Source: an uncultured Solirubrobacteraceae bacterium (GTDB lineage Bacteria; Actinomycetota; Thermoleophilia; Solirubrobacterales; Solirubrobacteraceae). Taken from it: DNA of 64,000 bases. This document shows, piece by piece, positions 1 to 48,556 of the stretch (position 1 is the first letter of the stretch; each line of letters begins with the position of its first letter). The DNA is taken from the NCBI GenBank assembly GCA_964588985.1, contig CAZPQW010000008.1, positions 1 through 64,000 on the forward strand, given 5' to 3'. Position numbers and translations under genes: made by a program. Below the pieces are notes generated by a model. That model saw only the letters and a list, made by a program, of their open reading frames with translations. It did no database searches and was not told the DNA's origin.

Positions 1-35
1 CTGGCTGAACGCACGTAGTGCGTCAGCCGGGTAGG

Positions 36-73
36 ACAGGGGGCCCGTCGCGTTCACGCGGCGGGCCCCCTGT
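36..73 (+). terminator. GC-rich 17-bp stem-loop, probable terminator of an upstream transcript
   Basis: ACAGGGGGCCCGTCGCG-ttca-CGCGGCGGGCCCCCTGT; a second hairpin lies at 1-30; U-tract is weak. Confidence 0.5.
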
Positions 74-199
74 GCTCTTGAAGGAGTCACGCCGCTCCGC
101 CGGGGATAGAGACAATGTGTGAAATCGATTGAACACGCATGCCCCGCTGGATACAGTCGCCCGACGATTCAGTGGATAACGAGCGGAGGCTGTTCAAAG

Positions 200-760
200 A
201 TGAGACTGGGGTTGCGAAGGATGACCGGTGGACGACTGGCGCTGGGGGCGGTGGGGCTTGCCCTCGTGCTGTCCGGCTGCGGTGGCTCGAGCGTTGGGAC
301 GTCGACTCCAGGATCCACTCCCGCTGCCACGCTGCCCACGTTCGCGCTCGCGAGCCCGGTGCTGCCCAAGACGCATGTGCTTCCGAGCCATTACGCGTGC
401 AACCCGAAGATCGGCGTGCCTCCGCTGAAATGGGCAGCGTTGCCAGCCAACACAGCCGAACTGGCCCTCGTGGTCTTCTTCATACAGAGAGGGCAACCCG
501 AACCGCAGGCGGCACTGACTGGGTTGAAGCCGACACTCCGCGAACTGAAATCCGGCGTCATCCCGCATGGTGCGGTCATAGCCGCCAACAGCAAGGTGAT
601 CTGCCCCACGGCCGGAATTGTGGCGACCTACTTCATACGCGTGTACGCGCTCAAGGCTCCGGTCAAAGTGGCGCACGGGGCCAGCGTGGGCGCCGTCGTC
701 ACGGCGATCTCACCATTGGCCACCAGCGTCGGCTCGGTTGAAGTTCACTACAAGAGATAG
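200..760 (+). CDS. Lipoprotein, distant YbhB/YbcL (PEBP)-like
   Basis: Signal peptide with lipobox LSGC; LASP..LP..Y.C, PPLKW..LP..TAELALVV and Y.IRVYAL motifs; ATG at 200 preferred over the ORF-track start at 119. Confidence 0.6.
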   Translation: MRLGLRRMTGGRLALGAVGLALVLSGCGGSSVGTSTPGSTPAATLPTFALASPVLPKTHVLPSHYACNPKIGVPPLKWAALPANTAELALVVFFIQRGQPEPQAALTGLKPTLRELKSGVIPHGAVIAANSKVICPTAGIVATYFIRVYALKAPVKVAHGASVGAVVTAISPLATSVGSVEVHYKR

Positions 761-1843
761 TCAGCGCGTGGCGAGCTCGGCCGAGGGGTAGCTGGGGTCG
801 AGCACGTCGAAGACGGGGACGCCTGGGATCGCCTCCTGGATCAGGGACCTCAGCTGTGCGGAGTCGAAGCGGTGCGAGCCGGGTGCGACCGGGTTGACGG
901 TGACGGCCGCGAGCGCGATTCGATTGAGGACCTGGATACGCACCCCCTGGCGGCGGTACCAGGCCGGCCCTCGTTTGGCGAGGAACACCCTCGTGGGGTC
1001 GGCTACGACGACGTCGATCTCGCGACCGCGTCGAGCGGTGGCCTGCAGCAGGTCGCGCAGGAAGCGGTCGGGCAGCGCCCCCGAGACGATCAACGTATTC
1101 GCGGTTGGGTGGGCGTCGAGCCGTTCGGCTATCTCGCCGGCGTCCGCGCGAAGCGCGAATCGGGGCGGCAGCTCCACCGGCTCGCCGCGATCGCCCACGA
1201 GCAGGCTCAACGTCCCGTCGCGAGCGGCGGAGAGCTCTCGCAGGGATGGGCCGCTGTCGCGGCTCTCCTCGACGCTCGGCAGGCGGACGAGGTCGACGGC
1301 ATCCCGGGTCTGTAAGACGACGTCGTCGAGGTCCTCGCCGAGAACCGCGCCGGTCGATATCACCAGTTGGTCGGCGACCGCGGGCGAGGAGGCCGCGCGG
1401 CGGTCTATGGCTCCGTCGATCAGCACCTGCTCGGCGCCGAACGCGAGCATCGCGTCACAGACGGCGCGCACGTCCTCGGCGGCGCTCGGCCCAGCCACCT
1501 CGATCGCGCCGGGACCGCGCAGGCGCGCGATCAGCACCCGCCCGAGCGGCGTCCTGATCGCGGTCTCTTCGAGGAGCTCGTGCGGCAGTGCGCTCGCCCG
1601 CAGCAGGGAGTCCGTGGTCGCCACGAGGCTGCCGCCCGGCATCTCGATACGCGGCTTCTCGATGCGGAAGTCGATCACGTCGCGCTCCTCGCCGTCGCGC
1701 CCGACTGACGTGACTCCCACGTGACGGCCGTCGGCTTCGAGCTCTCGCAGCAGCGTGCCGAGCGCGACGGTCTTGCCGGTGTTCTTCGCGAGCCCGACCA
1801 GCGCGAGCCGTCGCGCCGAGGAGGTCAGCTCGGAGAGGAGCAC
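761..1843 (-). CDS. kamB: Lysine 5,6-aminomutase reactivase subunit KamB-like
   Basis: LALVGLAKNTGKT P-loop, GVTSVGRDGE..D....EKPRI, TPLGRV, LIDGAIDRRAASSP; GTG at 1843 overlaps the kamE 3' end. Confidence 0.8.
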   Translation of the reverse strand: MLLSELTSSARRLALVGLAKNTGKTVALGTLLRELEADGRHVGVTSVGRDGEERDVIDFRIEKPRIEMPGGSLVATTDSLLRASALPHELLEETAIRTPLGRVLIARLRGPGAIEVAGPSAAEDVRAVCDAMLAFGAEQVLIDGAIDRRAASSPAVADQLVISTGAVLGEDLDDVVLQTRDAVDLVRLPSVEESRDSGPSLRELSAARDGTLSLLVGDRGEPVELPPRFALRADAGEIAERLDAHPTANTLIVSGALPDRFLRDLLQATARRGREIDVVVADPTRVFLAKRGPAWYRRQGVRIQVLNRIALAAVTVNPVAPGSHRFDSAQLRSLIQEAIPGVPVFDVLDPSYPSAELATR

Positions 1844-2610
1844 TCGGACACCCGCGCAGCTGTGCTGACGCGGTCGGCGAGCTCTCGCACGAGGAACGTC
1901 GCCAGGTGGTTGGGATAGGTGCCTTTGGAGAAGCCCGCGTCGTAGCCGAGCTCCTTGGCCAGCTCGTTCGACACGCGCGGCCCTCCGCACGCGAGGATCA
2001 TCTGCCGTCGGCGCCCCTCCGCCTCGACCATCTCCACGAGCTCGGTGAGGTTGTGCACGTGCAGGTTCTGCTGGGTGACGGTCTGGGAGACGAGGATCGC
2101 GTCGGCCCCCACTTCGATCGCCTTCGCGACGAGCACGCTGTTGGGGACCTGGCTGCCGAGGTTGTAGGTCTCGAAGCACGGGTAGCCCTCGAGGCCGTGG
2201 CGGCTGTGGTAGCCCTTGAGGTTGAGCATCGCGTCGATCCCCACGCTGTGGGTGTCCGAGCCGGTGCTCGCGCCCACGACCACGATCTTGCGCCCCACGT
2301 GCTCCTCGGCGAAGCGCTCGACCTCGTCCTCGCTCATGTACTCGATGTCGAAGCCCTCGCCCTGCAGCGCGGTGAAGTCCACCGTCTGCGCGCAGCGCCC
2401 GTACATCACGAAGTACGTGTAGCCCTCGGTGAGGGACTCGTAGTGGACGACCTCCGGCTCCTCGAAGCCCATCTTGCCCGCGAGCTCGAGCGCCGCCTTG
2501 CGCGCCGCCAGCGAGTGGGGGACGGGCAGGGTGAAGCTCATCTGCACGAGGCCGTCGCCGAGATGGTCGGCGTACGGCTTCACGGTTGTGAGATCGATGG
2601 CCTTAGGCAT
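1825..2610 (-). CDS. kamE: Lysine 5,6-aminomutase beta subunit (B12- and PLP-binding)
   Basis: VKPYAD..GDG.VQMSFTLP dimerisation domain; B12 motif DTHSVG followed by the PLP lysine in NLKGY; ADAILVSQTVTQ; GGPR. Confidence 0.93.
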   Translation of the reverse strand: MPKAIDLTTVKPYADHLGDGLVQMSFTLPVPHSLAARKAALELAGKMGFEEPEVVHYESLTEGYTYFVMYGRCAQTVDFTALQGEGFDIEYMSEDEVERFAEEHVGRKIVVVGASTGSDTHSVGIDAMLNLKGYHSRHGLEGYPCFETYNLGSQVPNSVLVAKAIEVGADAILVSQTVTQQNLHVHNLTELVEMVEAEGRRRQMILACGGPRVSNELAKELGYDAGFSKGTYPNHLATFLVRELADRVSTAARVSECSSPS

Positions 2611-4189
2611 AGCTCGCCTCGTCCGCGACCGCTGGGCGCATCAGCTCCACGACCGGGTTGAAGTAGCCGGGCTCCACGGTGACGATCCCCTCAATCCCTC
2701 GACCCTCCTCGACGCCGCGGCTGACGTCGCCGAAGGTCGCGTCCTCGATCGCCTGGAACAGGCCTGTCTCGGCGATCCGCTCGAGCAACTCGCGCGCGCC
2801 GGCGAGCACCTCGTGGGCGCGCGTCTGGATGATGCCACCGCGCTTGAACTCGATCTCATCGCCGAGGTCGTGGGCGGCGTTGAACACGTACTCCACGTTC
2901 TGCAGGCCGAGCACGCGGTCGTGGATGTGGGGAGTGAAGATCCCCTCGGTGGGCACGCCGATCGTCTGGATGCCCTGCCCGGTTGCGATCGTCACGAGGT
3001 TGAACAGGGCGTCGGTGGCGTGCGTGCGGAACAGGTTGCCGTCCATGTGTCTGGTGGGGGGCATGTACTTCACTGGGCAGTCGGGGAACAGCTCGCGAGT
3101 GAGCTGCGCCTGCGCCCACTCGTACAGCAGCCCGTTGCGCACCGGGGTGTCGATCTCGAACGCGTCGCCGAGCCCGATCTGCGCGTCGGGCACTCCGGAG
3201 TCGCGCGCGAGCTCGTGGTTGATGAACTGCGACGCGGTCACCGACGGCGCCGCCTCGATCGCGTCGGCGGTGCGCAGGTAGTTGTCCTCGCCCGTGTTGA
3301 TCACCACGCCGAAGTAACCGTTGATCATGCGCGAGACGCGCTGGTCGATCAGGCCGCGGATGATGTTGATGTCGCGGTAGAGGATCCCGTAGAGGGCGTC
3401 GTTGACCATGTTGTCGAAGCCCTCCCACGCGCCCATCGCCGCGATCTCCGACATGCACAGTCCCGAGCAGAAGCTCGACAGGCGGATGTAGCGCCCGTGC
3501 TGCTCGGACCACTCGTCCATCGCCTCGCGCATGATGCGGAAGTTCGCCTGCGTGGCGAACGTGCCGCCGTAGCCCTCCGTGGTGGGGCCGTAGGGGACGT
3601 AGTCGAGCAGGCTCTGGGCGGTCGAGCGGATCACCGCGACGATGTCCCCGCCCGCCTGCGCCACCGCCTTCGCGTGCACCACGTCCTCGTACACGTCGCC
3701 CGTCGCGGTGAGCACGTAGCGCAGGGGAGCGTGACCGTCGCCGAGGCGCTCGCGCATCTCGCGACGGGTCTCGAAGCGGGCGGCGATCTCGCGCAGGCGC
3801 GCGCCGCACTCCTCGCTCACGCGCTCGTGGATCGCGGGCTCCTCTGCCATCTCCAGCGCACACAGGTCGAGCTCCGCCGCGCTTACCGCCTCCGCGATCT
3901 GCTGTGGGCCGCGGCCGGTTTGGATCATCGCGTTGCCCAGCCAGTGCGCGATCCCCTTGCCAAGCACGCCGCGGTCCTGGACGTGATCGACGAGCACGTT
4001 CGGCAGCGGCACGTCGAGATCGTTCGCGCCGTCCACGCCGAGCAGGCGTGTGACGCTGCGCTCGACCGACAGGGTCGTGCGCCCCTCCGTCCGCTCCGCG
4101 ACCTGCTCGGCGATCCGCGTGGCCGCCTGGCGGCAGGCCGCCACCACGCCGGGGTCGAGATCGAGCTTGGGGGCGCCCACCTGGCTCAC
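2603..4189 (-). CDS. kamD: Lysine 5,6-aminomutase alpha subunit
   Basis: TTLSVERSVTRLLGVDG, VAVIRSTAQSLLDYVPYG.TTEGYGGTFATQ.NFR, NDALYGILYRDIN, INTGEDNYL, KYMPPT; GTG at 4189 overlaps the upstream TGA (GTGA). Confidence 0.93.
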   Translation of the reverse strand: MSQVGAPKLDLDPGVVAACRQAATRIAEQVAERTEGRTTLSVERSVTRLLGVDGANDLDVPLPNVLVDHVQDRGVLGKGIAHWLGNAMIQTGRGPQQIAEAVSAAELDLCALEMAEEPAIHERVSEECGARLREIAARFETRREMRERLGDGHAPLRYVLTATGDVYEDVVHAKAVAQAGGDIVAVIRSTAQSLLDYVPYGPTTEGYGGTFATQANFRIMREAMDEWSEQHGRYIRLSSFCSGLCMSEIAAMGAWEGFDNMVNDALYGILYRDINIIRGLIDQRVSRMINGYFGVVINTGEDNYLRTADAIEAAPSVTASQFINHELARDSGVPDAQIGLGDAFEIDTPVRNGLLYEWAQAQLTRELFPDCPVKYMPPTRHMDGNLFRTHATDALFNLVTIATGQGIQTIGVPTEGIFTPHIHDRVLGLQNVEYVFNAAHDLGDEIEFKRGGIIQTRAHEVLAGARELLERIAETGLFQAIEDATFGDVSRGVEEGRGIEGIVTVEPGYFNPVVELMRPAVADEASYA

Positions 4190-5835
4190 TGCAGATCTCT
4201 CACGATCGGGAACGGGATCACCTCGCGCAGCGTGTCGCGTTCGGTGAGGATCATCACGAGACGGTCCACGCCCATGCCGCCGCCGGCGGTGGGCGAGTAG
4301 CCGTACTCGATCGCGCGCGCGTATTCCTCGTCGTTGGGGTGCGGCACGTCCGCGTCGTCGATCATGCGCCGCTTGCGCTGGTCGACGAACCGCTGCCACT
4401 GGTCGACGGGGTCGTTCAGCTCGGTGTCGCCGCTCACGAGCTCGATGCCGCCGATCACCGCATCGAAGTGCTCGCCCAGCTCGGGGTGGACCGCATGGCG
4501 CTTGGTGATCGGGAACGGCTCGAGCGGGAAGTCGAACACGTGCGTCGGCTGGTTGATCGTGCTCTCGATCTGCTCCGAGTAGATGTCCGCGACGACCTCC
4601 GCCCACGTGGCGGCGGGGTCCATCGGCTCGTCCAGCACCTCGGCGAGCTGCTCGCGTGTGGACTCCATGAAGTCGAGGCCGAAGCGCTCCAGGATCAGCT
4701 CGCGCATCGTGACCCTCCGCCAGGGCTTGGCGAGGTCGATCTCCTCGCCGTTTCGTTTGATCGTCGTGCGTCCGAGCGCCTTCTGTGCGACGTCGCGGAA
4801 CATCTCTTCGGTCACGGTCGCCACGTCGTTGTAGTCGGAGTACGCGCACATGAACTCGATGATCGTGAACTCGGGGCTGTGCTTGTGCGAGATCCCCTCG
4901 TTGCGGAACACCTTGCCCATGTCGTACACGTTCTCCATGCCGCCCACGATGCAGCGGTTGAGGAACAGCTCCACGGAGATGCGCAGGTAGAGGTCGCGGT
5001 CGAGCGCGTTGTGGTGCGTCGTGAACGGTCTCGACCCGGCGCCGCCCGCGAGCGACTGCAGAGCGGGCGTTTCGATCTCCACGAAGTTCCGCTCTGCGAG
5101 CCATTCGCGGATCGCCAGGATGATCTTGTTGCGAGTGACGAACAGCTCACGCGTGCTCTCGTTGGCCATCAGGTCCAGCTCGCGGTACCGGTATCGCGTC
5201 CCCGTGTCGCCGAGCCCGTGGTGCTTGTCCGGCGGCGGGCGCAGCGTCTTGGTCAGCAGCGTGCACTCGACCGCCTCCAGGGCGAGCTGGCCGCGCTGGG
5301 TCACGTACACGCAGCCGTCGACGCTCACGATGTCTCCGATGTCGAGGTTCAGGATCCGGTCGTAGGTCTCCTGCCCCAGCGAGTCGACGCGAAGCACGAT
5401 CTGGATCGAGCCCGACAGGTCGCGCAGGTCCAGGAACGCTGTCTTGCCGTGGCCGCGACGCGAGATCAACCGACCCGCGACGAGGTAGCGCATGTCGGCG
5501 TGGCTGCCGTGCTCCAGCGCGCTCGGGTCGTGCGCCGCGAGCACGTCGGCGATGCGCGTGCGTGTCGCCCACAGGCTGACAGCCGGGTAGGGCTCGATCC
5601 CTTCGGCGCGCAGCCGCTCCATCTTCGCACGACGTTCGTCGAATTCCCCCTCCGGGGACGATGCGACCGCGCCGCCGTCCGCGCCGTCGACAACGACCGC
5701 GTCGGCAGTCGACTCGTCGCCCTGCTCCATCTCCTCCTGATCCTGTACTGGCATATCGAAGACGATCCTCTCAGCTGGGACGTGCTTGTCAAGCGGTCGC
5801 GCGGCGGTTTCCACGGACACGTTAGCGTTGGCCAT
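4186..5835 (-). CDS. lysS: Class IIb lysyl-tRNA synthetase homologue, divergent and probably a paralogue
   Basis: OB anticodon domain (RGHGKTAFLDLRD.SG.IQ), EIETP, FRNEG..H.PEFT, ELNDP, G.G.DRL.M..T....REVI.FP; several canonical residues substituted; start could instead be 5754 or 5730. Confidence 0.85.
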   Translation of the reverse strand: MANANVSVETAARPLDKHVPAERIVFDMPVQDQEEMEQGDESTADAVVVDGADGGAVASSPEGEFDERRAKMERLRAEGIEPYPAVSLWATRTRIADVLAAHDPSALEHGSHADMRYLVAGRLISRRGHGKTAFLDLRDLSGSIQIVLRVDSLGQETYDRILNLDIGDIVSVDGCVYVTQRGQLALEAVECTLLTKTLRPPPDKHHGLGDTGTRYRYRELDLMANESTRELFVTRNKIILAIREWLAERNFVEIETPALQSLAGGAGSRPFTTHHNALDRDLYLRISVELFLNRCIVGGMENVYDMGKVFRNEGISHKHSPEFTIIEFMCAYSDYNDVATVTEEMFRDVAQKALGRTTIKRNGEEIDLAKPWRRVTMRELILERFGLDFMESTREQLAEVLDEPMDPAATWAEVVADIYSEQIESTINQPTHVFDFPLEPFPITKRHAVHPELGEHFDAVIGGIELVSGDTELNDPVDQWQRFVDQRKRRMIDDADVPHPNDEEYARAIEYGYSPTAGGGMGVDRLVMILTERDTLREVIPFPIVRDLQ

Positions 5836-5896
5836 GGGTCGCCCGACGTCACGATGCCGGGGCGAACGCGCGCGGGCACGGCGGAGCGGGCGAGCG

Positions 5897-6370
5897 TCAG
5901 TTGGGCCGACCGCAGTGCTGGAAGCCGTCGTGGGTGGCGATCGCGATCAGCTGCTTCTGGAGTTCGTGGCTCTTGGCGATCGTTTCTTCGCCTAGCTTCG
6001 CGTTCTTCGCTTTCGCCTCGACGGCCAGCTGCGCGGTGTAGTTGGCCAGCTGCTGCATGCCCGACAAGAGCGTCTGCCAGTCCTTCGACAGTGAGGAGGG
6101 CGCTTTCAACGCGCTCAGATCGGCGACGACCTGATGCTCGTACGTCGCGAGACCGAGCCCGGTTTGGGCAACCTTCTGCAGCGTGTGCGCACCGCGCAGA
6201 TTCGTCACGTGCCCGAGGGCCGCGTTGGCGGCCGCGACGCGCGCGTTCATCTGCTTGCAGATCGGGTCCGCCTGCGCGATCAGCTTGGCGTTTGGGCTGC
6301 TGCCGCTGCCGCCGCCGCAGCCGGCGAACAGCGCGGCAAGGATGACGAGATACGAGAGCCTGCGTGCCAT
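5897..6370 (-). CDS. Helical lipoprotein of unknown function
   Basis: Lipobox FAGC; AQADPIC and a C-terminal GFQHC Cys pair; GGAG upstream. Confidence 0.75.
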   Translation of the reverse strand: MARRLSYLVILAALFAGCGGGSGSSPNAKLIAQADPICKQMNARVAAANAALGHVTNLRGAHTLQKVAQTGLGLATYEHQVVADLSALKAPSSLSKDWQTLLSGMQQLANYTAQLAVEAKAKNAKLGEETIAKSHELQKQLIAIATHDGFQHCGRPN

Positions 6371-6496
6371 GAGGACCGACGATCTCCTGCTTCACGGGGA
6401 CGATTGACGGCGCGACCCTATTGCCTGGGTTTCTCCAAAGCCAGCGATTGAGCCGATTGTCTCGGACTCTTCGATCGTCTGATCGGGGCGTGCGGG

Positions 6497-7654
6497 TCAG
6501 GCCATCGGCAGCGACATGCCCACCGGCTTGCGGCTCTCGGCCGGCGCGGAGGGTGTCGGCGCAACCTCGACGAGGGGCAGCGTCGGCAGCTGCGGGGGCG
6601 CCATCGCGATCAGTCCTCTCGCGACCTGGCGAATCGCCTGCGAGGCAGGGTCGTCGGGGTCCTCGATCACGAGCGGCACGCCGTTGTCGGCCTGCTCGCG
6701 CAGCGGCATCGTCAGCGGCACCTTGCCGAGCAGCGGCACGTCGAGCTCGTCCGCCAGTTCTTGGCCGCCGCCCTCGCCGAAGATCGTGAAGCGCTCGCCC
6801 GCGGGTGTGGTGAAGCTGGACATGTTCTCGATCACGCCGCCGATCTCGAGTGAGACCTTGGCTGCCATCTGCGCCGAGCGGCGGGCGACTTTCTGCGCGG
6901 TCGCCTGGGGCGTCGTGACGATCATGAACTGGGCTTGCGGCAGCAGCTGCGCGAGCGTCATCGACACGTCGCCAGTGCCCGGAGGCAGGTCCACAAGGAG
7001 GTAGTCGAGGAAGCCCCAGTCGACGTCCTGCAGGAACTGCGTGAGCGCCTTGTGCAGCATCGGTCCGCGCCACACCACCGCCGCGTCCTCCTCCACGAAG
7101 AAGCCGATCGACATCACCTTCACGCCATGGGACTCGAGCGGGATGATCTTGCGCGCCGCCGACACGTCCGGGCGCGTCGCGCCGAGCCCGTACATGCGCG
7201 GGATCGAGTAGCCCCACACGTCCGCGTCGAGGATCCCCACGCGCTTGCCTTCGCCCGTGAGCGCCGCGGCGAGGTTGGCGGTCAGCGTGGACTTGCCCAC
7301 GCCGCCCTTGCCCGAGCCGATGCACAGCACGTTGGCCACCTGGGCCAGCGCGCCGGCGGGCAGGCTCGCGCGGCCGAGCTTCTGCTGCAGGGCGCTCTTC
7401 TGCTCGTCGCTGAGCACGTCGAAGTACACGTTCACGTGCGTCACGCCCTCCAGCGCGCCCACCGCGTCCGCCACGGACGTCTGGAAGTGGCCCTTGATCG
7501 GGCAGCCTGGCGTCGTCAGCGAGACGGTCACGTCGACCACCCCGTTGGGGCTCGGCTCGATCGAGCGGACCATGTCGAGCTCGACGATCGAGCGATGCAG
7601 CTCCGGGTCGATCACGACCTCGAGCGCTTTGAGAATCTCATCCTTGCCGACCAC
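6497..7654 (-). CDS. mrp: Mrp/NBP35 (ApbC) Fe-S cluster carrier ATPase with N-terminal DUF59 domain
   Basis: VIDPEL..SIVEL, LTTPGCP, GSGKGGVGKST, WRGPMLHKAL.QF, DLPPGTGD, ENMS. Confidence 0.92.
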   Translation of the reverse strand: MVGKDEILKALEVVIDPELHRSIVELDMVRSIEPSPNGVVDVTVSLTTPGCPIKGHFQTSVADAVGALEGVTHVNVYFDVLSDEQKSALQQKLGRASLPAGALAQVANVLCIGSGKGGVGKSTLTANLAAALTGEGKRVGILDADVWGYSIPRMYGLGATRPDVSAARKIIPLESHGVKVMSIGFFVEEDAAVVWRGPMLHKALTQFLQDVDWGFLDYLLVDLPPGTGDVSMTLAQLLPQAQFMIVTTPQATAQKVARRSAQMAAKVSLEIGGVIENMSSFTTPAGERFTIFGEGGGQELADELDVPLLGKVPLTMPLREQADNGVPLVIEDPDDPASQAIRQVARGLIAMAPPQLPTLPLVEVAPTPSAPAESRKPVGMSLPMA

Positions 7655-7836
7655 GAGGGCTCATTGTGACAAACGCTGGCGGGCAGCCCGTGGCGAGTGT
7701 CGTTAAAGCGATCCGCGGGCGGTGGGGGCCGCCCGCGGATCGAGGGAGGAGAGGGTGCTACTACTGCCGACGGGATATGAGGTCGGCAGACTTTCCGCTT
7801 CCGGCCTCTCCGAGCCGGGCGGGGAAGGTGGTCGGT

Positions 7837-8427
7837 CTAGACGAGGCTGAGGATGCGCTCCTGGACCTTGGTCGCGAGCTCGGGCACGCGACCCGCGTAC
7901 TCGGGAACCTTGTTCGCGAGCTCGCTGCTGTTCTTCGCGATCGCTTCGCGTCTGGCGTCGATGTCGCTGACCGCGCTCTCCACCACACGGCGACGCTGGC
8001 GCAGTTCGCGCTCGACGCGGACGCGGGCTTTGCGGACCTCGCGCTCGAGGCGGTTGCGGGCCGTCACGCCACGACGCTCGAAGCGACGCAGCTGCGCCTG
8101 GGCCTTCGTGCTGGAGGAGTACGTGGACACGGTGTCGCTGACGGTCTCGACCACCCGGTCGCGAGCGATCAGGGCCGCGCCGACGGGGATCAGCACGGCG
8201 CGCTCGGCGTAGTCGCCGACCACGCCGGCGGTCTCGCGTGTGGCGGTCTGCGTCTGGCGCAGAGCCGACTCGGCCTGGTGAGCCGCACGGGTGCGTGCGC
8301 CCTTGGCGTGGGTGGCTTTAGCCTTCGTGGTGCCGCTGGCTGCGCGGGCTTTGGCGACGGCGGGTTTGCTCGCTGCTTTTGCGCGAGGTTTGGCGGCTTT
8401 GGGGGAAGTTGCGGGGGCGGTGGGCAT
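7837..8427 (-). CDS. Hypothetical protein with Lys/Ala-rich N-terminus and helical (phasin/HBHA-like) body
   Basis: AGGAG RBS upstream; AERAVLIPVGAAL.ARD segment; GC-ending codon usage. Confidence 0.7.
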   Translation of the reverse strand: MPTAPATSPKAAKPRAKAASKPAVAKARAASGTTKAKATHAKGARTRAAHQAESALRQTQTATRETAGVVGDYAERAVLIPVGAALIARDRVVETVSDTVSTYSSSTKAQAQLRRFERRGVTARNRLEREVRKARVRVERELRQRRRVVESAVSDIDARREAIAKNSSELANKVPEYAGRVPELATKVQERILSLV

Positions 8428-8476
8428 CTGAAGCTCCTATCTCTGTCTCGCCGGGTGCGAGAACACGGGTAAGTGG

Positions 8477-8492
8477 TCGAACACCTGTTTGT
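8477..8492. promoter_or_regulatory. Possible LexA (SOS)-like box
   Basis: TCGAAC-acct-GTTTGT versus actinobacterial consensus TCGAAC-N4-GTTCGA (10/12), upstream of 7837..8427. Confidence 0.35.
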
Positions 8493-8569
8493 AACCCGTG
8501 TGGAGAAGATCGTTACAGCTTGATCGTAGCACCGCGTGAAAACCCTGTAACCAGGGGCTCTGCGCTCGG

Positions 8570-9730
8570 CTACTTTGTAACAGGAGGAACATGCGTTCGG
8601 GCGGTGCTTCCAGGCTCGTCGGCGTCTCGAGCGTCCATCCGCGCGATCCACAGGTCGGGCTGCTCGAGCTCGGCCGTGGTCGGCAGGGCGTGCGGTCCGC
8701 CCCACGCGCGCGCGAGGGATTGCGACCCGCCCGTCCGCACGACCTCGTCGCAGAAGCGCCGCCCGATCTCGTACTGGCGCATCTTCAGCTCCAGCCCGAG
8801 CAGCCGCTCGAGCACGCGCCAGGGCAGGGGGCGGTTCTCGCGCCGGCGGTTCATCGCGGCGCGCAGCTTCGGCAGCGAGGGGAGCATCTCCGCGCCGATA
8901 GCGTCCATCGTGTGCTCCGCGTGTCCCTCGATCAGCGACATCGCCGCCTGCATCCGCTCGACCAGCTGCCAACGATCCTCGCCGAGCGTCAGCCGCAGCA
9001 GCTGTCCACTCCGTGCGCGCTCGAGCATCTCGCGCAGCTCGGCCGGGTTCGGAACCTTCCCGCCCAGCCCGCCCAGCCCGTCGCGAAGATTCGACGCCCA
9101 TCCGCCGCGGCGCCCGTCCTTGAGCTCATCGCTCTCCTCGCCCGCGAGCGTCACCTGCAGCCCCTCGAGCAGCTCCGCGAGCATCCCTCCGAGGTGCTCG
9201 CGCAGCCACGGCGCTCCCGAGAACTGGACCGCGTGGGTGATCTCGTGGATCGTCACCCACAGCACGAGCTCGTCGCGGTCCACCGCGAGGTTACGCGCGG
9301 CCTGGGCGAGGTTGGGGGCGAGCAGCAGCAGGCGGGGGGCGACCGAAGCGTCGAGCAGCGCGAGGTCGTACTGGCCGAGCACGCGCTGGGAGAGCATCCC
9401 CGTCAGCGCGCCCACCTGCGCGCCGAGCAGCAGCCCCGAGGCGGAGCGCAGCGGGCCCGCGAGGAAGCCTTCCTCCTTTGCCATGCGCTCGGTCAACGGC
9501 GCGAGCATCGGGCGCATGCTCTCGAGGTTCGCCGCGATCCACTCGGAGCGATCGACCGCCTCCAGTGGCGGCAGGTGCGCGGGCAGCTCGAGGCCGCTGT
9601 AGGCGCTCACGCGCTCGGCGAAGTCGTGTGCGAGCGGCTCGACGGTCGCGGCACGCACCCCCCCGTGCGGAGGCGAGCCGGCGATCAGCTCTCCGATCCG
9701 CTGGGCGGTACGCCAGTCGATGAAGTCCAC
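8570..9730 (-). CDS. Zinc-dependent metalloprotease (zincin-like, DUF2342-type)
   Basis: SQRVLGQYD, HEITHAVQF (HExxH), MSLIEGHAE, LGLELKMRQY..GRRF, LPT..EL..PD.W. Confidence 0.88.
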   Translation of the reverse strand: MDFIDWRTAQRIGELIAGSPPHGGVRAATVEPLAHDFAERVSAYSGLELPAHLPPLEAVDRSEWIAANLESMRPMLAPLTERMAKEEGFLAGPLRSASGLLLGAQVGALTGMLSQRVLGQYDLALLDASVAPRLLLLAPNLAQAARNLAVDRDELVLWVTIHEITHAVQFSGAPWLREHLGGMLAELLEGLQVTLAGEESDELKDGRRGGWASNLRDGLGGLGGKVPNPAELREMLERARSGQLLRLTLGEDRWQLVERMQAAMSLIEGHAEHTMDAIGAEMLPSLPKLRAAMNRRRENRPLPWRVLERLLGLELKMRQYEIGRRFCDEVVRTGGSQSLARAWGGPHALPTTAELEQPDLWIARMDARDADEPGSTARTHVPPVTK

Positions 9731-9805
9731 CGCAAGAGCGTAGCCCGGCGGGCGCGCTGTTCCGCGCGTAACCTTCCAGTTGTGTCTGGCTCAAAGATCG
9801 CGCCC

Positions 9806-11506
9806 GTGCCGCCTCAGGCCAACTCGCGCGTGGAGCACGGCGGCGGTTTCCTCAAGCGGGCGGAGGTGCGCGACGTGCTCGCGTGGATGCGTCTGCTGGT
9901 CGATCCGCAGGACGCCGCAGCTGTCGTGCGCGCGCTGTCCAGGCCGCCGATCGAGCTGCGCCAGGTGGAGCTAGCGCGCGTGATCCAGGTAGCCCGCAGG
10001 CGCAAGCTGGACCTCGTGGTCGGCCTCGCCGCCGCGACCGAGTCCCCGCACGTTCCGCCGGAGGCGCGCGAACGCATCCAGCGCTTCGTGGAGCTCCACC
10101 GCGGCGCGGCCGGCGAGCTGGACGTGATCGCCCCGGACGTGTTCCTCGGAGGCCTGATCGAGCGCCTCGGTCTGCGCGGGCGCCCGCTGCTGGCGCCCGA
10201 GGACGCCGCCGTGCAGCGCGCGAGCCTCGAGCGGCTGCACGCGCTCGCGGTGGACTTCGTACGCGAGCGTCCGGAGTCGAGCACGCGCGACCTCGTACGC
10301 CACCTCGCCACGGTCGTGCCGGAGGCTCACACGGAAGCTCCGCCGGATCTCGCTTTCGCCGCGGCCGAGGCTGAGGCGAACGCAGATCAGCCCGCGTCCG
10401 CGGACGTGCTCTCCGAGCAGCTCGAGACGACGCTGCGGCTGCTGCGCGAGGAGGTCCTCGACAGCGTCGCGCGGATCGGCGGGCGGCTCGGCGAGCTGCG
10501 GCTGGACACCGACCTCGACATCTCCCACGGCGTGGTGCGCTACCTGGAGCTGCTGAAGCTCTCCGCACTGCTGCAACGGCCCGAGGGGCAGGACCTGGAG
10601 GATGCGCTCGCGGACGTCAACGCGCGCCTGCTCGCGGCCACCACCCCGCTCGAGCGCGAGATCTTCCAGACCTCGCCGCTCGACGACACGCTGCTGAGCG
10701 GCGGCGGCGACGATCGCGCCCGCGCGCAGGCGCTGCTGCCAAGGGAGGAGCACTCGCTCGGCCCGTTCCTGCCGCGCAGGGGGATCGGCCTCGGCCTGTC
10801 GGCGTCGGACATCCAGACATACCGCAGCTGTCCGCTGAAGTACAAGTTCGCGCGTGTGCTGCGCATCCCCGTCGAGCAGACGATCCACCAGCGCTTCGGC
10901 ATCGTCGTCCACCAGGTGCTCGAGCGCTACCACTCCGACGGGCACGCCACGCTCGCACAGATGCTCGACCTGCTTGACGCGGGCTGGCGCCGCGCGGGCT
11001 TCGGCCCCGGCGATCGGGATCGCGAGCTGTTCGAGAAGGCCCAGACCGCGCTCACCCGCTACCACGCGCGGCTGAGCGAGCACGACGCCGAGCCGGTGTG
11101 GTTCGAGCGCCAGTTCGACTTCCGCGTCGGGCCGCACCACCTGCGTGGCCGCGTCGATCGCGTCGACCGTGTCGCCGGCGCCGACGACGCCGAGTACGAG
11201 CTGATCGACTACAAGACCTCGCGGCCGAAGACCGTCGAGCAGCTGAAGGACGACGTGCAGCTGTCGCTGTATGCGCTCGCCGCGCGCGAAGCGTGGCAGC
11301 TGGAGTCCTCGCGCCAAGCTTACTACTACGTGCTCGACGACCTCAAGGTGCCCGTGCCGCGCGACCAGCGCGACGCGGAGGCGGTCAAGCAGATCGTGCT
11401 CGAGGTGGGAGAGGGCATCCTCGCGCAGGAGTTCGAGCCCACTCCCTCCCGTACCGCGTGCTCGATGTGCGACTACCGGATCGTGTGTCCGGCGGCCGAG
11501 GCGTAG
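9806..11506 (+). CDS. PD-(D/E)XK RecB/AddB-like nuclease with a UvrD 2B-like N-terminal fragment
   Basis: FLKRAEVRDVLAWMRLLVDPQD; LSASDIQTYRSCPLKY, GIVVHQVLE, LRGRVDRVD, LIDYKT, QLSLYALA, CSMCDYRIVC; start approximate. Confidence 0.82.
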   Translation: MPPQANSRVEHGGGFLKRAEVRDVLAWMRLLVDPQDAAAVVRALSRPPIELRQVELARVIQVARRRKLDLVVGLAAATESPHVPPEARERIQRFVELHRGAAGELDVIAPDVFLGGLIERLGLRGRPLLAPEDAAVQRASLERLHALAVDFVRERPESSTRDLVRHLATVVPEAHTEAPPDLAFAAAEAEANADQPASADVLSEQLETTLRLLREEVLDSVARIGGRLGELRLDTDLDISHGVVRYLELLKLSALLQRPEGQDLEDALADVNARLLAATTPLEREIFQTSPLDDTLLSGGGDDRARAQALLPREEHSLGPFLPRRGIGLGLSASDIQTYRSCPLKYKFARVLRIPVEQTIHQRFGIVVHQVLERYHSDGHATLAQMLDLLDAGWRRAGFGPGDRDRELFEKAQTALTRYHARLSEHDAEPVWFERQFDFRVGPHHLRGRVDRVDRVAGADDAEYELIDYKTSRPKTVEQLKDDVQLSLYALAAREAWQLESSRQAYYYVLDDLKVPVPRDQRDAEAVKQIVLEVGEGILAQEFEPTPSRTACSMCDYRIVCPAAEA

Positions 11507-11516
11507 GCCTCTCACG

Positions 11517-12389
11517 CTACTTACCCTCGCGCCCCCGTTGCCGCAGGAACCGCTGGAATTCCCGCGCGAGCGCGTCGCCCGACGGCACCTCATCGGGCGA
11601 GGTCTGATCCTCGCTGTCCGCAGCCTGCTCGAGCCGTTCCACGAACGCCTGGATGTCGGGGTCGCTCTGCACCGCGAGCCCCACCTGGCGCTCGTAGTCG
11701 GCCGCGGCGGACTCCAGCTCGGACACGTCCACCGACACGCCGATCAGCACTTCCACCCGCCGCAGAAGAGCGAGCGCCGCCTTCGGGTTGGCGGCCGCCG
11801 CCACGTAGTGGGGGACCGACGCCCACAGGCTCGCCGACGGTAGGCCCGCGTCCGCGCACGCGGTGTGCAGCACGCCCACGATCCCGGTCGGCCCCTCGTA
11901 GCTGGACGGCGTCAGCGCCAGACGCTCCAGCAGCGCCGCGTCGGAGGCGTGGCCGGTCATCGCGACGGGGCGTGTGTGCGGCATGTCGCCCAGCAGCGCT
12001 CCGAGCGAGACCACCATCTGCACCCCCAGCGCCTCCGCCAGGTCGACCACGTGTGCGCAGAACGCCCGCCAGCGCATCGACGGCTCCACGCCCTGAACGA
12101 GCACCAGGTCGCGTGGGGCGCGCGGCGCACCCGCTTCGAAGAACTCCACCGTCGGCCACGTGATCTCCCGCTTCTCGCTCTCCCCGAAGCGGATGCTCGG
12201 CCGGTTCGTCTGGAAGTCGAAGAACTCCTCCGAGTCGATGTGCGCGAAACGTCGCGCGTTCAAGGAGGAGGCGAGGAACGACACGGCGCTCGACGCCGCG
12301 TCGCCGGCATCGTTCCAGCCCTCGAAAGCGCACACCATGGCCGGGGCCCTGAGGCCATCCGGACGGCGGTCCCAGATGAGGGGCTGCAT
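11517..12389 (-). CDS. PAC2 family (proteasome assembly chaperone-like) protein
   Basis: AFEGWNDAGDAAS, FDFQ.NRP, GVEPSMRW, LGALL.D.PHTRP, YEGPTGIVG, LWASVPHY. Confidence 0.9.
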   Translation of the reverse strand: MQPLIWDRRPDGLRAPAMVCAFEGWNDAGDAASSAVSFLASSLNARRFAHIDSEEFFDFQTNRPSIRFGESEKREITWPTVEFFEAGAPRAPRDLVLVQGVEPSMRWRAFCAHVVDLAEALGVQMVVSLGALLGDMPHTRPVAMTGHASDAALLERLALTPSSYEGPTGIVGVLHTACADAGLPSASLWASVPHYVAAAANPKAALALLRRVEVLIGVSVDVSELESAAADYERQVGLAVQSDPDIQAFVERLEQAADSEDQTSPDEVPSGDALAREFQRFLRQRGREGK

Positions 12390-12414
12390 CCGAACCACCG
12401 TACATCATGAGTCC

Positions 12415-13365
12415 GTGTCCTCCGCCACGCGTCCAGCGCCAGAGCTCCCCAACACCGTCGCCACGTTGCGCGATCAGGAGGAGGTCGACGGGCTGTTCGC
12501 ATGCACTCGCAAGGAGCGCCAGATCTCCCGCGCCGGCACGCCCTACCTCACGGTCGAGCTGCGCGACAGCACCGGCACGATCCGCGGACGCGCCTTCCGC
12601 GAAGCGGACGTCCTCGCCGGTCGCTTCGAGCGCGGCGAGCTCGTGCGCGTGCGCGGTCGCGTCGAGCGCTTCCGCGACGAGCTGCAGATCGCGCTGCGGT
12701 CGATCTCACGCGCCGAGGGCGAGGAGGCCGACCCGACGGTGTTCCTGCCCACCGCCTACCGCGACCTCGACGAGCTGGAGGGTTTCTTCGAGCACCTCGC
12801 GCGCGAGGTCTACGACCCGGGGTGCAAGGCGCTGCTCGCCGCGATCCTCGCCGACGCCGCCCTGCGCGCGGAGATCCGTCGTGCGCCCTGCTCGATACCC
12901 GTGCACGCCGGCGCGCCCGCCGGCCGCGGCCCGTCCGGCCACCATGCCTACCTCGGCGGGCTGCTCGAGCACACCGTCGCCGTCGCCACGCTCGCGCTGG
13001 AGTGCTGTCAGCTGCACCCGCGTCTCGATCGAGACCTGCTGCTCACCGCCGCGCTCGTGCACGACCTCGGCAAGACGCGCGAGTTCACCTACGGCGCGGA
13101 CATCGAGCGCAGCGACGAGGGCCGCATGCTCGGCCACGTCGAGCTCGGGCTGCGGCTGATCTCACGCTATGCGCCCACCAAGCTCGAGGGCGAGCGGCGG
13201 CTGGCGCTCGATCACTGCGTGATGCTCCACCACGGGCCCGAGGCGGCCTCGGGGCAGCGGTTCGCCTCGGCCGAGGCGCTCGCGCTTCACCGGCTCAACG
13301 CGCTCGACGCGCAGGTCAAGGGGGCGTTGGAGCATGGGGGGTTTGGCGGGAAGCGGGTGGATTGA
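12415..13365 (+). CDS. yhaM: OB-fold + HD domain 3'-5' exoribonuclease, YhaM-like
   Basis: PYLTVELRDSTGTI OB fold; HHAYLGGLLEHT, LVHDLGK..E, LGHV, LHHG; start approximate. Confidence 0.8.
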   Translation: MSSATRPAPELPNTVATLRDQEEVDGLFACTRKERQISRAGTPYLTVELRDSTGTIRGRAFREADVLAGRFERGELVRVRGRVERFRDELQIALRSISRAEGEEADPTVFLPTAYRDLDELEGFFEHLAREVYDPGCKALLAAILADAALRAEIRRAPCSIPVHAGAPAGRGPSGHHAYLGGLLEHTVAVATLALECCQLHPRLDRDLLLTAALVHDLGKTREFTYGADIERSDEGRMLGHVELGLRLISRYAPTKLEGERRLALDHCVMLHHGPEAASGQRFASAEALALHRLNALDAQVKGALEHGGFGGKRVD

Positions 13366-33846: not shown

Positions 33847-33870
33847 AGGCTGGTCCGAGTCCAAAAGTCA

Positions 33871-33909
33871 GAAACTACACTTGCGGGAAGCTGGTAGCGA
33901 GCGTACGGT
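33871..33909 (+). promoter_or_regulatory. Sigma70-type promoter with upstream GAAACT element
   Basis: GAAACTACAC-TTGCGG-N17-TACGGT; same layout occurs five times in the window. Confidence 0.7.
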
Positions 33910-33957
33910 AGACGCTACGGAGTCACGTGTAATGGCTCCTTAGGGATGTCTAGGCTG

Positions 33958-33990
33958 ATGTTTGACGCTACTCCGGGTGGGCGCTTATAA
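33958..33990 (+). other. Leader ORF MFDATPGGR[TTA]* overlapping an anti-SD sequence
   Basis: ATG TTT GAC GCT ACT CCG GGT GGG CGC TTA TAA; CTACTCC is complementary to the downstream GGAGTAG. Confidence 0.45.
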
Positions 33991-34014
33991 GTCCAATCGT
34001 AAAGGAGTAGTTAG

Positions 34015-34638
34015 ATGAGGCGTACAACAACGACGGCAGTGGGGCTGGTGGCCCTTGTGGTGATGTTGGTGCTCGGCGTGTTCTCCGCCGGGTCAGCGTC
34101 AGCGCATTTATTCTTATACACGGGACCCTTACCCTCATTACTCTTAATATTAAGCGAGGGTCCGCAGATCTTCAACGTTACACCAGAAGGCTTCCAAATC
34201 AATTGTCCGCATTTCTTAGGTCATATTCAGGTCTCTAATGGTGTGATGTGGGGCTTAACGGCCAAAGTCACCGGTGACTATCCCGGCAAATGCACCGTGA
34301 CCGGTGGCTCCAAAGGGACGATCTCCCCGGTGGAATACGAAATCAGTGCTGACGGCACGATCTCTATTCTCAAAACCATTACAATCACGGCCGGGAGTCC
34401 GGCCAACTGCAGTCTCTTAGTCGAACCGACCGCAGAAAACCAGAACCTCTCAAGCCTCTTATTCTTAAAAGATCCCCTCAACTCTGGAGCGATATTAGGG
34501 CATGCCGCAGTTGGTGGCATCCACTCGAAAGGCACCAGCGGGGTCTGTTCTGAAAAGGAAGAAAATAACTACACTAAAGGTAGCTATTTCGGCTTATTCT
34601 TAGTGTGGGTGCATGGGGGTACTGTTGCTTGGGAGTAG
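34015..34638 (+). CDS. TTA-rich secreted beta-rich protein, paralogue 1
   Basis: AAGGAG RBS; signal peptide ending ASA; 4 Cys; C-terminal GG.V.WE; 14 TTA codons. Confidence 0.9.
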   Translation: MRRTTTTAVGLVALVVMLVLGVFSAGSASAHLFLYTGPLPSLLLILSEGPQIFNVTPEGFQINCPHFLGHIQVSNGVMWGLTAKVTGDYPGKCTVTGGSKGTISPVEYEISADGTISILKTITITAGSPANCSLLVEPTAENQNLSSLLFLKDPLNSGAILGHAAVGGIHSKGTSGVCSEKEENNYTKGSYFGLFLVWVHGGTVAWE

Positions 34639-34698
34639 TTTAGATATGGCAGTTTCACGCTGTGTTACAGGAGGTTATGAAGGCTAGTTAGCTGGCTT

Positions 34699-34733
34699 GG
34701 GTGGGGGTTGGGTTTGGTGTCTGGCTCCCACCC
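34699..34733 (+). terminator. Conserved hairpin downstream of the TTA-rich gene
   Basis: GGGTGGGGGTT...GGCTCCCACCC; homologous hairpins at 45750, 54750 and 58883. Confidence 0.6.
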
Positions 34734-34816
34734 GGTTTTGTTGCGTGAGGGGAGTTGGTGTGGGTTTGTGTGGTTGTGATGGTGGTGGGGTTGGGTGTCT
34801 AGGAGGGGGTTGGGCT

Positions 34817-37483: not shown

Positions 37484-37739
37484 GACGAAGGGGAAGCGAA
37501 AGCTTGGGCCGTTGATGGCGAGGCATCGAGGCGTTGTGCAGGAGGCGACCGAGGGCGCCGGGACCAGCAGTGCCGGCGACGACCTTTATTAGAGGTGGTC
37601 TCGATCGAGTCGCGTGTAGCGATCCTTGTGCTCGATGAGCCGTAGGCCTCGCAACTCGGTGAGGCGTTTGTGGTTGAGCTCGGGCTGGAGTGTCGCGTCG
37701 AACTGTGGAGAAGTCCAGCGCGCACGATCCCTGGTAGCG

Positions 37740-44763: not shown

Positions 44764-44921
44764 TCGACCCTCTCGTCTATCGCGGCTCGTGGCTTTGCCC
44801 GAACCCCGTCCATGGATCCACCGGGCCGCAGGCGGACGGGGGCGTATTGTCGCCCGCCGCACTTCGCAATATTCGCCAGCGGGTCGTTGCCTTGATCGGT
44901 TCGGCGCGGGTAAAGAAGTCA

Positions 44922-44960
44922 GAAACTACACTTGCGGAGCGCTAGTAGTCAGCGTACAGT
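44922..44960 (+). promoter_or_regulatory. Sigma70-type promoter with GAAACT element
   Basis: GAAACTACAC-TTGCGG-N17-TACAGT. Confidence 0.7.
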
Positions 44961-45065
44961 AGAAGCTACGGTGTCACGTGTAATGGCTCCTTAGGGATGT
45001 CTAGGCTGATGTTTGACGCTACTCCGGGTGGGCGCTTATAAGTCCAATCGTAAAGGAGTAGTTAG

Positions 45066-45689
45066 ATGAGGCGTACAACAACGACGGCAGTGGGGCTGGT
45101 GGCCCTTGTGGTGATGTTGGTGCTCGGCGTGTTCTCCGCCGGGTCAGCGTCAGCGCATTTATTCTTATACACGGGACCCTTACCCTCATTACTCTTAATA
45201 TTAAGCGAGGGTCCGCAGATCTTCAACGTTACACCAGAAGGCTTCCAAATCAATTGTCCGCATTTCTTAGGTCATATTCAGGTCTCTAATGGTGTGATGT
45301 GGGGCTTAACGGCCAAAGTCACCGGTGACTATCCCGGCAAATGCACCGTGACCGGTGGCTCCAAAGGGACGATCTCCCCGGTGGAATACGAAATCAGTGC
45401 TGACGGCACGATCTCTATTCTCAAAACCATTACAATCACGGCCGGGAGTCCGGCCAACTGCAGTCTCTTAGTCGAACCGACCGCAGAAAACCAGAACCTC
45501 TCAAGCCTCTTATTCTTAAAAGATCCCCTCAACTCTGGAGCGATATTAGGGCATGCCGCAGTTGGTGGCATCCACTCGAAAGGCACCAGCGGGGTCTGTT
45601 CTGAAAAGGAAGAAAATAACTACACTAAAGGTAGCTATTTCGGCTTATTCTTAGTGTGGGTGCATGGGGGTACTGTTGCTTGGGAGTAG
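45066..45689 (+). CDS. TTA-rich secreted protein, paralogue 2 (same protein as paralogue 1)
   Basis: Same 207-aa sequence, 14 TTA codons; leader ORF at 45009-45041. Confidence 0.9.
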   Translation: MRRTTTTAVGLVALVVMLVLGVFSAGSASAHLFLYTGPLPSLLLILSEGPQIFNVTPEGFQINCPHFLGHIQVSNGVMWGLTAKVTGDYPGKCTVTGGSKGTISPVEYEISADGTISILKTITITAGSPANCSLLVEPTAENQNLSSLLFLKDPLNSGAILGHAAVGGIHSKGTSGVCSEKEENNYTKGSYFGLFLVWVHGGTVAWE

Positions 45690-48534: not shown

Positions 48535-48556
48535 GACGAAGGAAACAGAGGGAGCG

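Follow-up and report, generated by a model that had tools for sequence, protein, structure and literature searches.

What use does a bacterium that already has a canonical lysyl-tRNA synthetase (LysRS) make of a second one, whose gene is built into the operon of a lysine-rearranging enzyme? The question is raised by a locus of an uncultured Solirubrobacteraceae bacterium (genome G000; 3.41 Mb in 48 contigs, 95.9% complete), which lies near the beginning of the 64,000-nucleotide stretch of DNA analyzed here (positions 1-64000 of contig C8, referred to as the window). At this locus a class II LysRS paralogue, which we named LysRS2, precedes the genes for lysine 5,6-aminomutase (kamD and kamE) and its reactivase (kamB). 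With a confidence that is matched by an equal measure of doubt, we propose that LysRS2 may be a neofunctionalised class II LysRS paralogue that is co-translated with KamDE and KamB.

The identity of the protein as a LysRS homologue, which had been put forward at 4186-5835 without a strand in an earlier note made from the DNA letters, was corroborated, and the gene was found to lie on the minus strand (coordinates of all features are collected in Table 1). The open frame comprises 586 amino acids (aa) in full, and a start further in than the ATG that we used, e.g. Met28 at 5754, may apply. LysRS2 has the domain order of a class II LysRS, with an N-terminal OB anticodon domain (tRNA_anti-codon, PF01336; 1.7e-11) and a class II D/K/N core (tRNA-synt_2, PF00152; 2.3e-77), and it scores above the NCBIfam cut-offs for lysine--tRNA ligase (NF001756, 537.7 vs 468 bits; TIGR00499, 474.4 vs 427.6). 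The scores for two related families stay below the cut-offs, both for EpmA (TIGR00462, 169 vs 286.9; NF006828, 148.8 vs 264) and for LysX (NF002821, 428.8 vs 742 bits), and no MprF domain is present in the open reading frame (ORF). An AlphaFold2 model based on an alignment of 79 sequences had a mean pLDDT (predicted local distance difference test) of 88.4, and the top matches of this model in a Foldseek search of the PDB were LysRS structures (TMt 0.92-0.93). Across 78 orthologues the mean conservation was 0.94 for the catalytic domain and 0.17 for residues 1-62; the pLDDT of residues 1-58 was below 50.

LysRS2 is not the sole LysRS of the genome, an outcome that speaks for the earlier note, which had named this check. 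A protein of 500 aa with canonical motifs, 48% identical to LysRS2, is encoded next to clpC on contig C11 (33666-35090). Given that this copy has the canonical pocket residues, the deviations in LysRS2 described below are not typical of the lineage.

To map the residues of the amino-acid pocket, LysRS2 was aligned with E. coli LysU (PDB 1e1o) using HMMER; residues are given hereafter as LysU followed by LysRS2 numbering. The pocket differs by the changes Asn271 to S320, Tyr280 to M329, Asn424 to S468 and Phe426 to D470, and further changes comprise Lys244 to N293, Arg412 to H456 and Glu414 to D458. Glu240 (E289), Arg262 (R311), Glu278 (E327), Glu428 (E472) and Arg480 (R525) are kept. Of the six residues that make up the canonical side-chain pocket for lysine, three have been replaced (Tyr280, Asn424 and Phe426) and the three Glu have been retained. 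The earlier note had read these three replacements and the preserved Glu428 by eye from the translation, and both the reading and the strings on which it was based (LRISVELFLNRC, HSPEFTIIEFMCAY, HFDAVIGGIELVSGDTELNDP, GYSPTAGGGMG, IQIV, TQRGQL, FRNE and DRL) were recovered. The same holds for the ATP-binding arginines, which it had considered intact: R311 and R525 are invariant in the 79-sequence alignment, as are E313, H319 and E465 (the equivalents of LysU Glu264, His270 and Glu421). Motifs 2 and 3 thus retain their ATP- and Mg-binding residues, with Asp458 at the position of Glu414.

The altered residues are fixed within the close relatives and rare outside of them, and are not a product of chance. 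N293, S320, M329, H456, D458, S468, D470, T471 and E472 are invariant in 78/78 close orthologues. In a survey of 152 aligned rows, made up of 150 representatives of clusters at 50% identity, LysRS2 and the canonical copy of the genome, position 280 was Tyr in 127 rows and Met in 11, position 424 was Asn in 121 and Ser in 13, and position 426 was aromatic (Phe or Tyr) in 130 and Asp in 10. In the LysU structures the lysine side chain presumably packs against the rings of Tyr280 and Phe426. Passages of the literature state that Glu428 binds lysine and Arg480 the gamma-phosphate of ATP (PMC8251883), and that the LysRS changes Y280F and F426W alter thialysine discrimination (PMC12546413, citing Ataide 2007). 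The substitutions are thus located at sites that bind lysine or set the discrimination against analogues.

At conserved positions the remodelling does not extend to the anticodon domain, although the earlier note had assumed so. We collected the sites where 112 canonical representatives show a conservation of 80% or more and the LysRS2 clade has a different residue fixed, and all 14 were found in the catalytic domain (residues 212-536) and 0 in the OB domain, which argues that the pocket was remodelled and the anticodon domain was not. The OB domain shows a mean conservation of 0.85 across the 78 orthologues, indicative of purifying selection. Two other statements on this domain stood up, namely that it is kept, unlike in EpmA, and that it retains the conserved Arg, Phe and Gln. 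These correspond to R126/R127, F134 and Q145, which we take to be the positions that read U35 in class IIb enzymes; F134 does not vary among the 79 aligned sequences, and conservation reaches 90% or more at R127 and Q145.

The genes downstream of LysRS2 each exceed the equivalog cut-off for the respective component of the 5,6-aminomutase system (Table 1), and KamE combines an OAM_dimer with a B12-binding domain. The stop codon of LysRS2 (TGA, 4186-4188) overlaps the GTG start of kamD at 4189 in the sequence GTGA, the start of kamE overlaps the end of kamD, and the GTG start of kamB at 1843 overlaps the end of kamE. On the basis of this arrangement of the sequence, LysRS2-kamD-kamE-kamB is a single overlapping operon in which LysRS2 is predicted to be translationally coupled to KamDE and KamB. 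The contig begins 760 bases past kamB, and a scan of positions 1-8600 for promoters and terminators yielded nothing beyond shuffled expectation. Two soil metatranscriptome runs contained RNA contigs of 120-455 nt that map on LysRS2 and kamD with 90-99% likeness; these stem from relatives, may reflect DNA carry-over and in no case bridge the gene junction, and were not counted as proof of expression.

The coupling is strictly conserved. In the 80 most similar loci within species-representative genomes (metagenome-assembled genomes of the Solirubrobacteraceae/Solirubrobacterales; 79-94% identity), kamD was found directly downstream of LysRS2 in all 80. The kamE gene was present in 76, the four misses being contig ends, and kamB in 75, where again four misses were contig ends and in one locus (L063) the gene was not found despite 3.9 kb of following sequence; in L021 and L083 kamB was located around 2 kb further on. 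In L029 the order of gene families suggests a second, inverted and partial set (LysRS2-like, kamB-like, kamE-like) downstream, which is possibly an assembly artefact.

To extend the comparison, a sample of 301 genomes of the order and one of 401 genomes of the phylum were analyzed (the counts include genomes flagged as unpublished: G422, G442, G610 and G645 in the former and G001, G018, G048, G239 and G391 in the latter). Two LysRS matches were present in 14 of the 15 other sampled congeners, so that all 14 carriers of the paralogue keep a second copy. Twelve of the congeners have an orthologue that is 77% or more identical, and in each of them kamD was adjacent and on the same strand. The remaining congener, G663, has neither the paralogue nor kamD. 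Outside the genus KamD was recovered in G650 and G676 from the order sample and in 30 other genomes of the phylum sample, 29 times above the cut-off and once truncated. No LysRS-like gene was found near kamD in any of these, and the only LysRS-like matches in the 30 genomes were 37-43% identical to LysRS2. In G676, which belongs to another family (L096), we observed a tRNA-Arg(UCU) gene (C1:866557-866625) on the opposite strand, 78 bases from kamD (866703-868232); this proximity is probably coincidental.

A second association became apparent in G507 and G627, which carry a sister paralogue (60-62% identical) with the motifs EWLQSY and VSGDSE, thus with S-G-D-x-E kept, and have no kamD. The gene that directly follows this sister, and overlaps its stop codon in G627, encodes a class III aminotransferase. 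This enzyme belongs to the diaminobutyrate--2-oxoglutarate transaminase family, with a TIGR00709 score (cut-off 401.6) of 405.0 bits in G627 and of 395.8, just below the cut-off, in G507. Upstream, an Mrp gene completes the same synteny. As either kamD or a diaminobutyrate-type aminotransferase follows the paralogue, the same slot has been taken by two different enzymes of basic diamino acids. The dependence is one-sided: the paralogue always has a diamino-acid enzyme as partner, and KamDE occurs elsewhere without the paralogue.

The phylogenetic position of the paralogues was determined with IQ-TREE (LG+C20; unrooted tree, with support from the Shimodaira-Hasegawa-like approximate likelihood ratio test, SH-aLRT, only) on 96 sequences, comprising 23 divergent paralogues, the canonical copy of the genome and 72 representatives of 470-535 aa, a selection from which fragments and longer fusions were excluded. 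All divergent paralogues fall into a single clade (SH-aLRT 100) that is separate from the 73 canonical LysRSs. Within the clade the KamD-linked type is monophyletic (SH-aLRT 99), and a larger group (SH-aLRT 99) unites it with the aminotransferase-linked type and with two metagenomic sequences that are unplaced.

Other pocket types occur as well. Paralogues of 'type B', from two-copy genera in another family of the order, carry EWFVSGA and GGGTD and adjoin a short-chain dehydrogenase gene and another gene whose product looks, by eye, like a PrmC/HemK-type methyltransferase; those of 'type C' carry ASGSSD. These paralogues, from loci of other Solirubrobacterales genera (L086-L095, e.g. L088:8021-9550), still score above the NCBIfam LysRS cut-offs, and a Baekduia/Conexibacter cluster within the clade bears the NCBI name 'amino acid--tRNA ligase-related protein'. 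Independent paralogues with S-G-D-x-E were found as well (P0130, P0132, P0136 and P0164). A metagenome scan with P0136 recovered almost only canonical LysRSs, caught via the shared motif, the exceptions with divergent motif-2 signatures being L143 and L159 (type B-like) and L199 (sister-type). No close relative of P0136 was found in 19 two-copy genomes, in which the second copies are long LysX-like frames; such frames, of around 1100-1350 aa, are present in other Solirubrobacterales.

Taken together, we consider it an evenly balanced proposition, derived from sequence, that LysRS2 would activate the product of the aminomutase, probably 2,5-diaminohexanoate, and load it onto tRNA(Lys). KamDE would shift the amine at the end of the lysine side chain from C6 to C5, which is the known reaction of this enzyme, giving 2,5-diaminohexanoate, or 3,5-diaminohexanoate if beta-lysine is the substrate. 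LysRS2 would then adenylate this isomer and not lysine, by virtue of a pocket in which the aromatic wall of Phe/Tyr426 has given way to Asp and Tyr280, the partner of the epsilon-amine, to Met, and it would pass the isomer to tRNA(Lys), still read via the unaltered OB domain. With an acidic side chain on the wall that normally stacks on C4-C6, and with Met replacing the Tyr to which the epsilon-amine pairs, the pocket would suit a substrate that bears its amine at C5 and ends in a methyl group, as 2,5-diaminohexanoate does. The earlier note had likewise suggested an amine moved from C6 to C5, which gains strong circumstantial support from the coupling to a 5,6-aminomutase at all related loci. 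We infer the specificity itself from the pocket residues and the gene neighbours, and in the same conditional sense the tRNA acceptor and the use of the charged tRNA, be it in translation at Lys codons or in non-ribosomal transfer.

Lysine 5,6-aminomutase is best known for D-lysine and L-beta-lysine as substrates. Among possible partners of lysine fermentation, the genome encodes a KamA-family radical-SAM homologue (C1:134865-135938; 167.2 bits vs a cut-off of 199.2) that adjoins a gene of 1420 aa resembling a non-ribosomal peptide synthetase (NRPS) and an adenylation-domain fragment, and not efp; it may provide a route to a beta-amino acid in a natural product. A second KamA-family match is weak (24.5 bits), and one BKACE gene is located on another contig. 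Neither the KamA-family matches nor the BKACE gene settles the substrate of KamDE.

Several considerations weigh against the proposed charging of tRNA(Lys) with the isomer. LysRS2 keeps Glu428, with which the epsilon-amine classically interacts, and may therefore still bind lysine; it also still scores above the NCBIfam LysRS cut-offs. The products of D-lysine or L-beta-lysine may have a stereochemistry or backbone that does not suit a class II synthetase. Moreover, tRNA(Lys) charged with the isomer would enter translation at Lys codons unless this is prevented, and no dedicated outlet was recovered: the C-terminal domain of MprF (PF09924) and FemAB were not found in the 95.9% complete genome. 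A search for the LanB N-domain gave no match anywhere, controls included, and is uninformative. Finally, the conserved linkage is seen within one genus-level lineage, so that part of it reflects inherited synteny and not independent evidence.

In an alternative reading, LysRS2 would have remained specific for lysine, and its pocket would have been rebuilt to exclude the analogues made by its neighbours (2,5- or 3,5-diaminohexanoate, and diaminobutyrate in the sister clade). As a self-protection isozyme it would maintain the synthesis of Lys-tRNA(Lys) while such analogues accumulate. The preserved Glu240, Glu278 and Glu428, the unaltered anticodon domain and the scores above the LysRS cut-offs are all consistent with this role, co-expression with an analogue-producing enzyme fits in both clades, and a passage of PMC12546413 indicates that changes of Tyr280/Phe426 in E. 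coli LysRS raise the discrimination against a lysine analogue. Nevertheless, we regard this role as unlikely. Compared with Y280F and F426W, the known resistance changes, the replacements of Phe by Asp, Tyr by Met and Asn by Ser are much more radical, and they add charge to the pocket wall. In addition, the canonical LysRS stays, and a second copy would not stop that enzyme from mischarging an analogue that it accepts; and the 30 other KamD-bearing genomes do without such a copy. A new specificity is favoured over both analogue resistance and redundancy because the sister clade is coupled to a diaminobutyrate-type transaminase, because the dependence is one-sided, because the canonical LysRS is retained in every sampled genome that bears the paralogue, and because the substitutions are so drastic.

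The activated isomer could also be destined for another acceptor than tRNA, such as a protein (compare EpmA, which acts on elongation factor P, EF-P), a carrier or a small molecule, with the OB domain kept for other binding. A precedent for the pairing of a LysRS paralogue with a lysine aminomutase is given by EpmA/EpmB, as described in a passage of PMC9437257, and the known aminoacyl-tRNA-dependent transferases (the MprF C-domain, FemAB) mentioned above were not found in the genome. The window furthermore lacks a tRNA gene: ARAGORN reported 0, low-threshold ARAGORN matches fell inside coding regions, and searches for structured RNA gave no match at the Rfam gathering level in the window and two chance-level matches at E<=5 in positions 1-9000. 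Against such an acceptor, however, the OB domain that is missing in EpmA is here under purifying selection with its conserved Arg, Phe and Gln kept, the EpmA hidden Markov models (HMMs) score below their cut-offs, and the KamA-family match of the genome has NRPS-like neighbours in place of efp. We therefore judge this option to be quite improbable.

Charging of a tRNA other than tRNA(Lys) deserves a separate discussion, as the earlier note had raised a UAA anticodon. The genome has 48 tRNA genes, including those for tRNA-Lys with CUU and UUU, and on contig C5 (104171-104243, minus strand), thus outside the window, an orphan class I tRNA of 73 nt with the anticodon UAA and discriminator A73, in addition to a normal 87-nt tRNA-Leu(UAA) on C1. 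A search of the 15 other congeners recovered homologues of the orphan with the same anticodon (L097-L106) in 10, whereas none was found in 12 non-congeneric genomes of the family; the closest matches outside the genus are tRNA-Thr(UGU) genes. One may thus imagine that LysRS2 charges this tRNA and, together with KamDEB, brings about a pyrrolysine-like insertion of the lysine isomer at UUA. The orphan is present in 10 of the 14 paralogue-bearing congeners besides G000, it lies around 15-24 kb from the LysRS2 gene in four genomes, and among the 516,106 codons of 1,287 confident ORFs TTA occurs 44 times (0.09 per thousand), fewer than any other codon examined. Yet the link with a UAA anticodon was not supported. 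No tRNA was found in the window, the orphan is on another contig than LysRS2 in G000, and no homologue was detected in G453, G585, G597 and G678, four genomes with both kamD and LysRS2, two of which are assembled as a single contig. LysRS2 moreover keeps the residues that presumably read U35, where the orphan has A35, and the co-occurrence of the two is inseparable from shared ancestry in one genus. Charging of the orphan by LysRS2 is therefore highly improbable, and we treat this tRNA as a curiosity separate from LysRS2, with code expansion a far-fetched use for it. The boldest combination, in which LysRS2, KamDEB and the orphan constitute a natural code expansion, with 2,5-diaminohexanoate produced on demand for insertion at UUA (the rarest sense codon in this high-GC lineage), is in our view very unlikely. 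In a milder version the isomer would be carried by tRNA(Lys) and would enter proteins or the envelope as a new amino acid borne naturally by a tRNA. That LysRS2 is a redundant or decaying duplicate without special function is hardly credible and was already disfavoured, for although duplication of LysRS is frequent (a passage of PMC5388404 reports paralogues of class II LysRS in 218 genomes), the frame is open, the fold is predicted at high confidence, the catalytic domain is strongly conserved, its pocket and catalytic residues do not vary, the genes of the operon overlap tightly, and a second LysRS match is kept in 14/14 paralogue-bearing congeners.

Other features of the region were noted as well. 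The gene for a putative lipoprotein upstream of LysRS2 was found in only 8 of the 80 related loci and is probably outside the LysRS2 system, and the Mrp/ApbC gene preceding it is present in 79 of the 80 and also stands beside the aminotransferase-linked sister paralogue. Further on, the window contains a direct repeat of 3.6 kb (33865-37491 and 44916-48542; 99.4% identity, 11,051 bases apart); a third copy, which is only partial, is located at 54056-54640 (83%). The repeat has a GC content of around 57%, below that of the surroundings, and encodes a 207-aa protein without family match and a 928-aa protein with a weak match to the PD40 beta-propeller.

Table 1. Features of the LysRS2 locus and of the adjoining part of the window
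Feature	Position	Strand	Remarks
kamB, aminomutase reactivase subunit, 360 aa	761..1843	minus	NF052386 305.4 (cut-off 210)
kamE, lysine 5,6-aminomutase beta subunit (B12-binding), 261 aa	1825..2610	minus	NF052385 353.6 (cut-off 280)
kamD, lysine 5,6-aminomutase alpha subunit, 528 aa	2603..4189	minus	NF052384 780.3 bits (cut-off 600); PF09043 1.2e-219
LysRS paralogue LysRS2	4186..5835	minus	549 aa counted from ATG 5835
LysRS2 class II catalytic core, residues 212-544	4204..5202	minus	Altered lysine pocket, ATP/Mg residues intact
LysRS2 OB-fold anticodon-binding domain, residues 113-200	5236..5499	minus	PF01336 at residues 118-193
LysRS2 N-terminal acidic extension, residues 1-58	5662..5835	minus	Predicted disordered, unconserved
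Putative lipoprotein, 157 aa, upstream of LysRS2	5897..6370	minus	Signal peptide and lipobox in sequence; no family match
Mrp/ApbC Fe-S carrier ATPase, upstream	6497..7654	minus	Pfam ParA/NUBPL 1.8e-91; conserved synteny
971-aa protein near the OB/HD gene	8591-11506		PD-(D/E)XK nuclease domain and weak UvrD_C helicase match
PAC2-family gene near the OB/HD gene	11517-12398
401-aa protein (OB/HD gene)	12160-13365	plus	tRNA_anti-codon-type OB fold and HD phosphohydrolase domain

If the proposed activity of LysRS2 is true, the system would provide a natural example of an aminoacyl-tRNA synthetase that evolves toward a non-canonical diamino acid and a possible source of orthogonal enzymes for genetic code expansion. 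It would also show what 5,6-aminomutase may do physiologically in soil actinobacteria that live aerobically and do not ferment lysine, and the further pocket types within the clade would constitute a set of related specificities for comparison.

With respect to what has been described, a literature search (supplementary files not covered) returned no paper that joins 5,6-aminomutase with lysyl-tRNA or LysRS, and the matches listed for '5-diaminohexanoate' concerned fermentation or metabolomics. A passage of a 2022 review (PMC9437257) lists only three kinds of LysRS paralogue, LysU, EpmA/PoxA and LysX. The closest parallel is EpmA (PoxA/GenX) with EpmB, in which a paralogue of class II LysRS is functionally paired with a lysine aminomutase and activates the product of that enzyme, and in which an altered amino-acid pocket likewise exists beside a canonical LysRS. 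EpmA, however, lacks the OB domain that LysRS2 keeps and acylates EF-P, and EpmB is a radical-SAM 2,3-aminomutase, whereas the partner of LysRS2 is a 5,6-aminomutase dependent on B12 and pyridoxal phosphate (KamDE) with its reactivase. The pyrrolysine system (PylS/PylT with the lysine mutase PylB) is similar in logic only, in that a class II synthetase is encoded with a lysine-rearranging enzyme; the homology of LysRS2 to PylS is limited to the class II core, and neither a linked dedicated tRNA nor analogues of PylC and PylD are present. LysRS2 resembles LysU, the stress isozyme, in being a second class II LysRS of full length that shares its domain order and fold. Tyr280, Asn424 and Phe426 of LysU, however, are Met, Ser and Asp in LysRS2, whose gene is in addition locked into the operon of an aminomutase. 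LysX, a fusion of MprF and LysRS for the synthesis of lysyl-lipid, is another extra LysRS of actinobacteria that serves a non-ribosomal use of aminoacyl-tRNA, but no MprF domain was found in the ORF or in the 95.9% complete genome as a whole. A last likeness concerns the inhibitor-resistant paralogues of other synthetases, such as the mupirocin-resistant IleRS2 and the albomycin-resistant SerRS2, where a second synthetase is found beside enzymes for the biosynthesis of a substrate mimic. These keep their cognate specificity, whereas in LysRS2 the residues that line the side chain have themselves been replaced. Considered against these systems, LysRS2 with its operon constitutes a real, conserved and unreported variant on the theme of a synthetase paralogue combined with an aminomutase.

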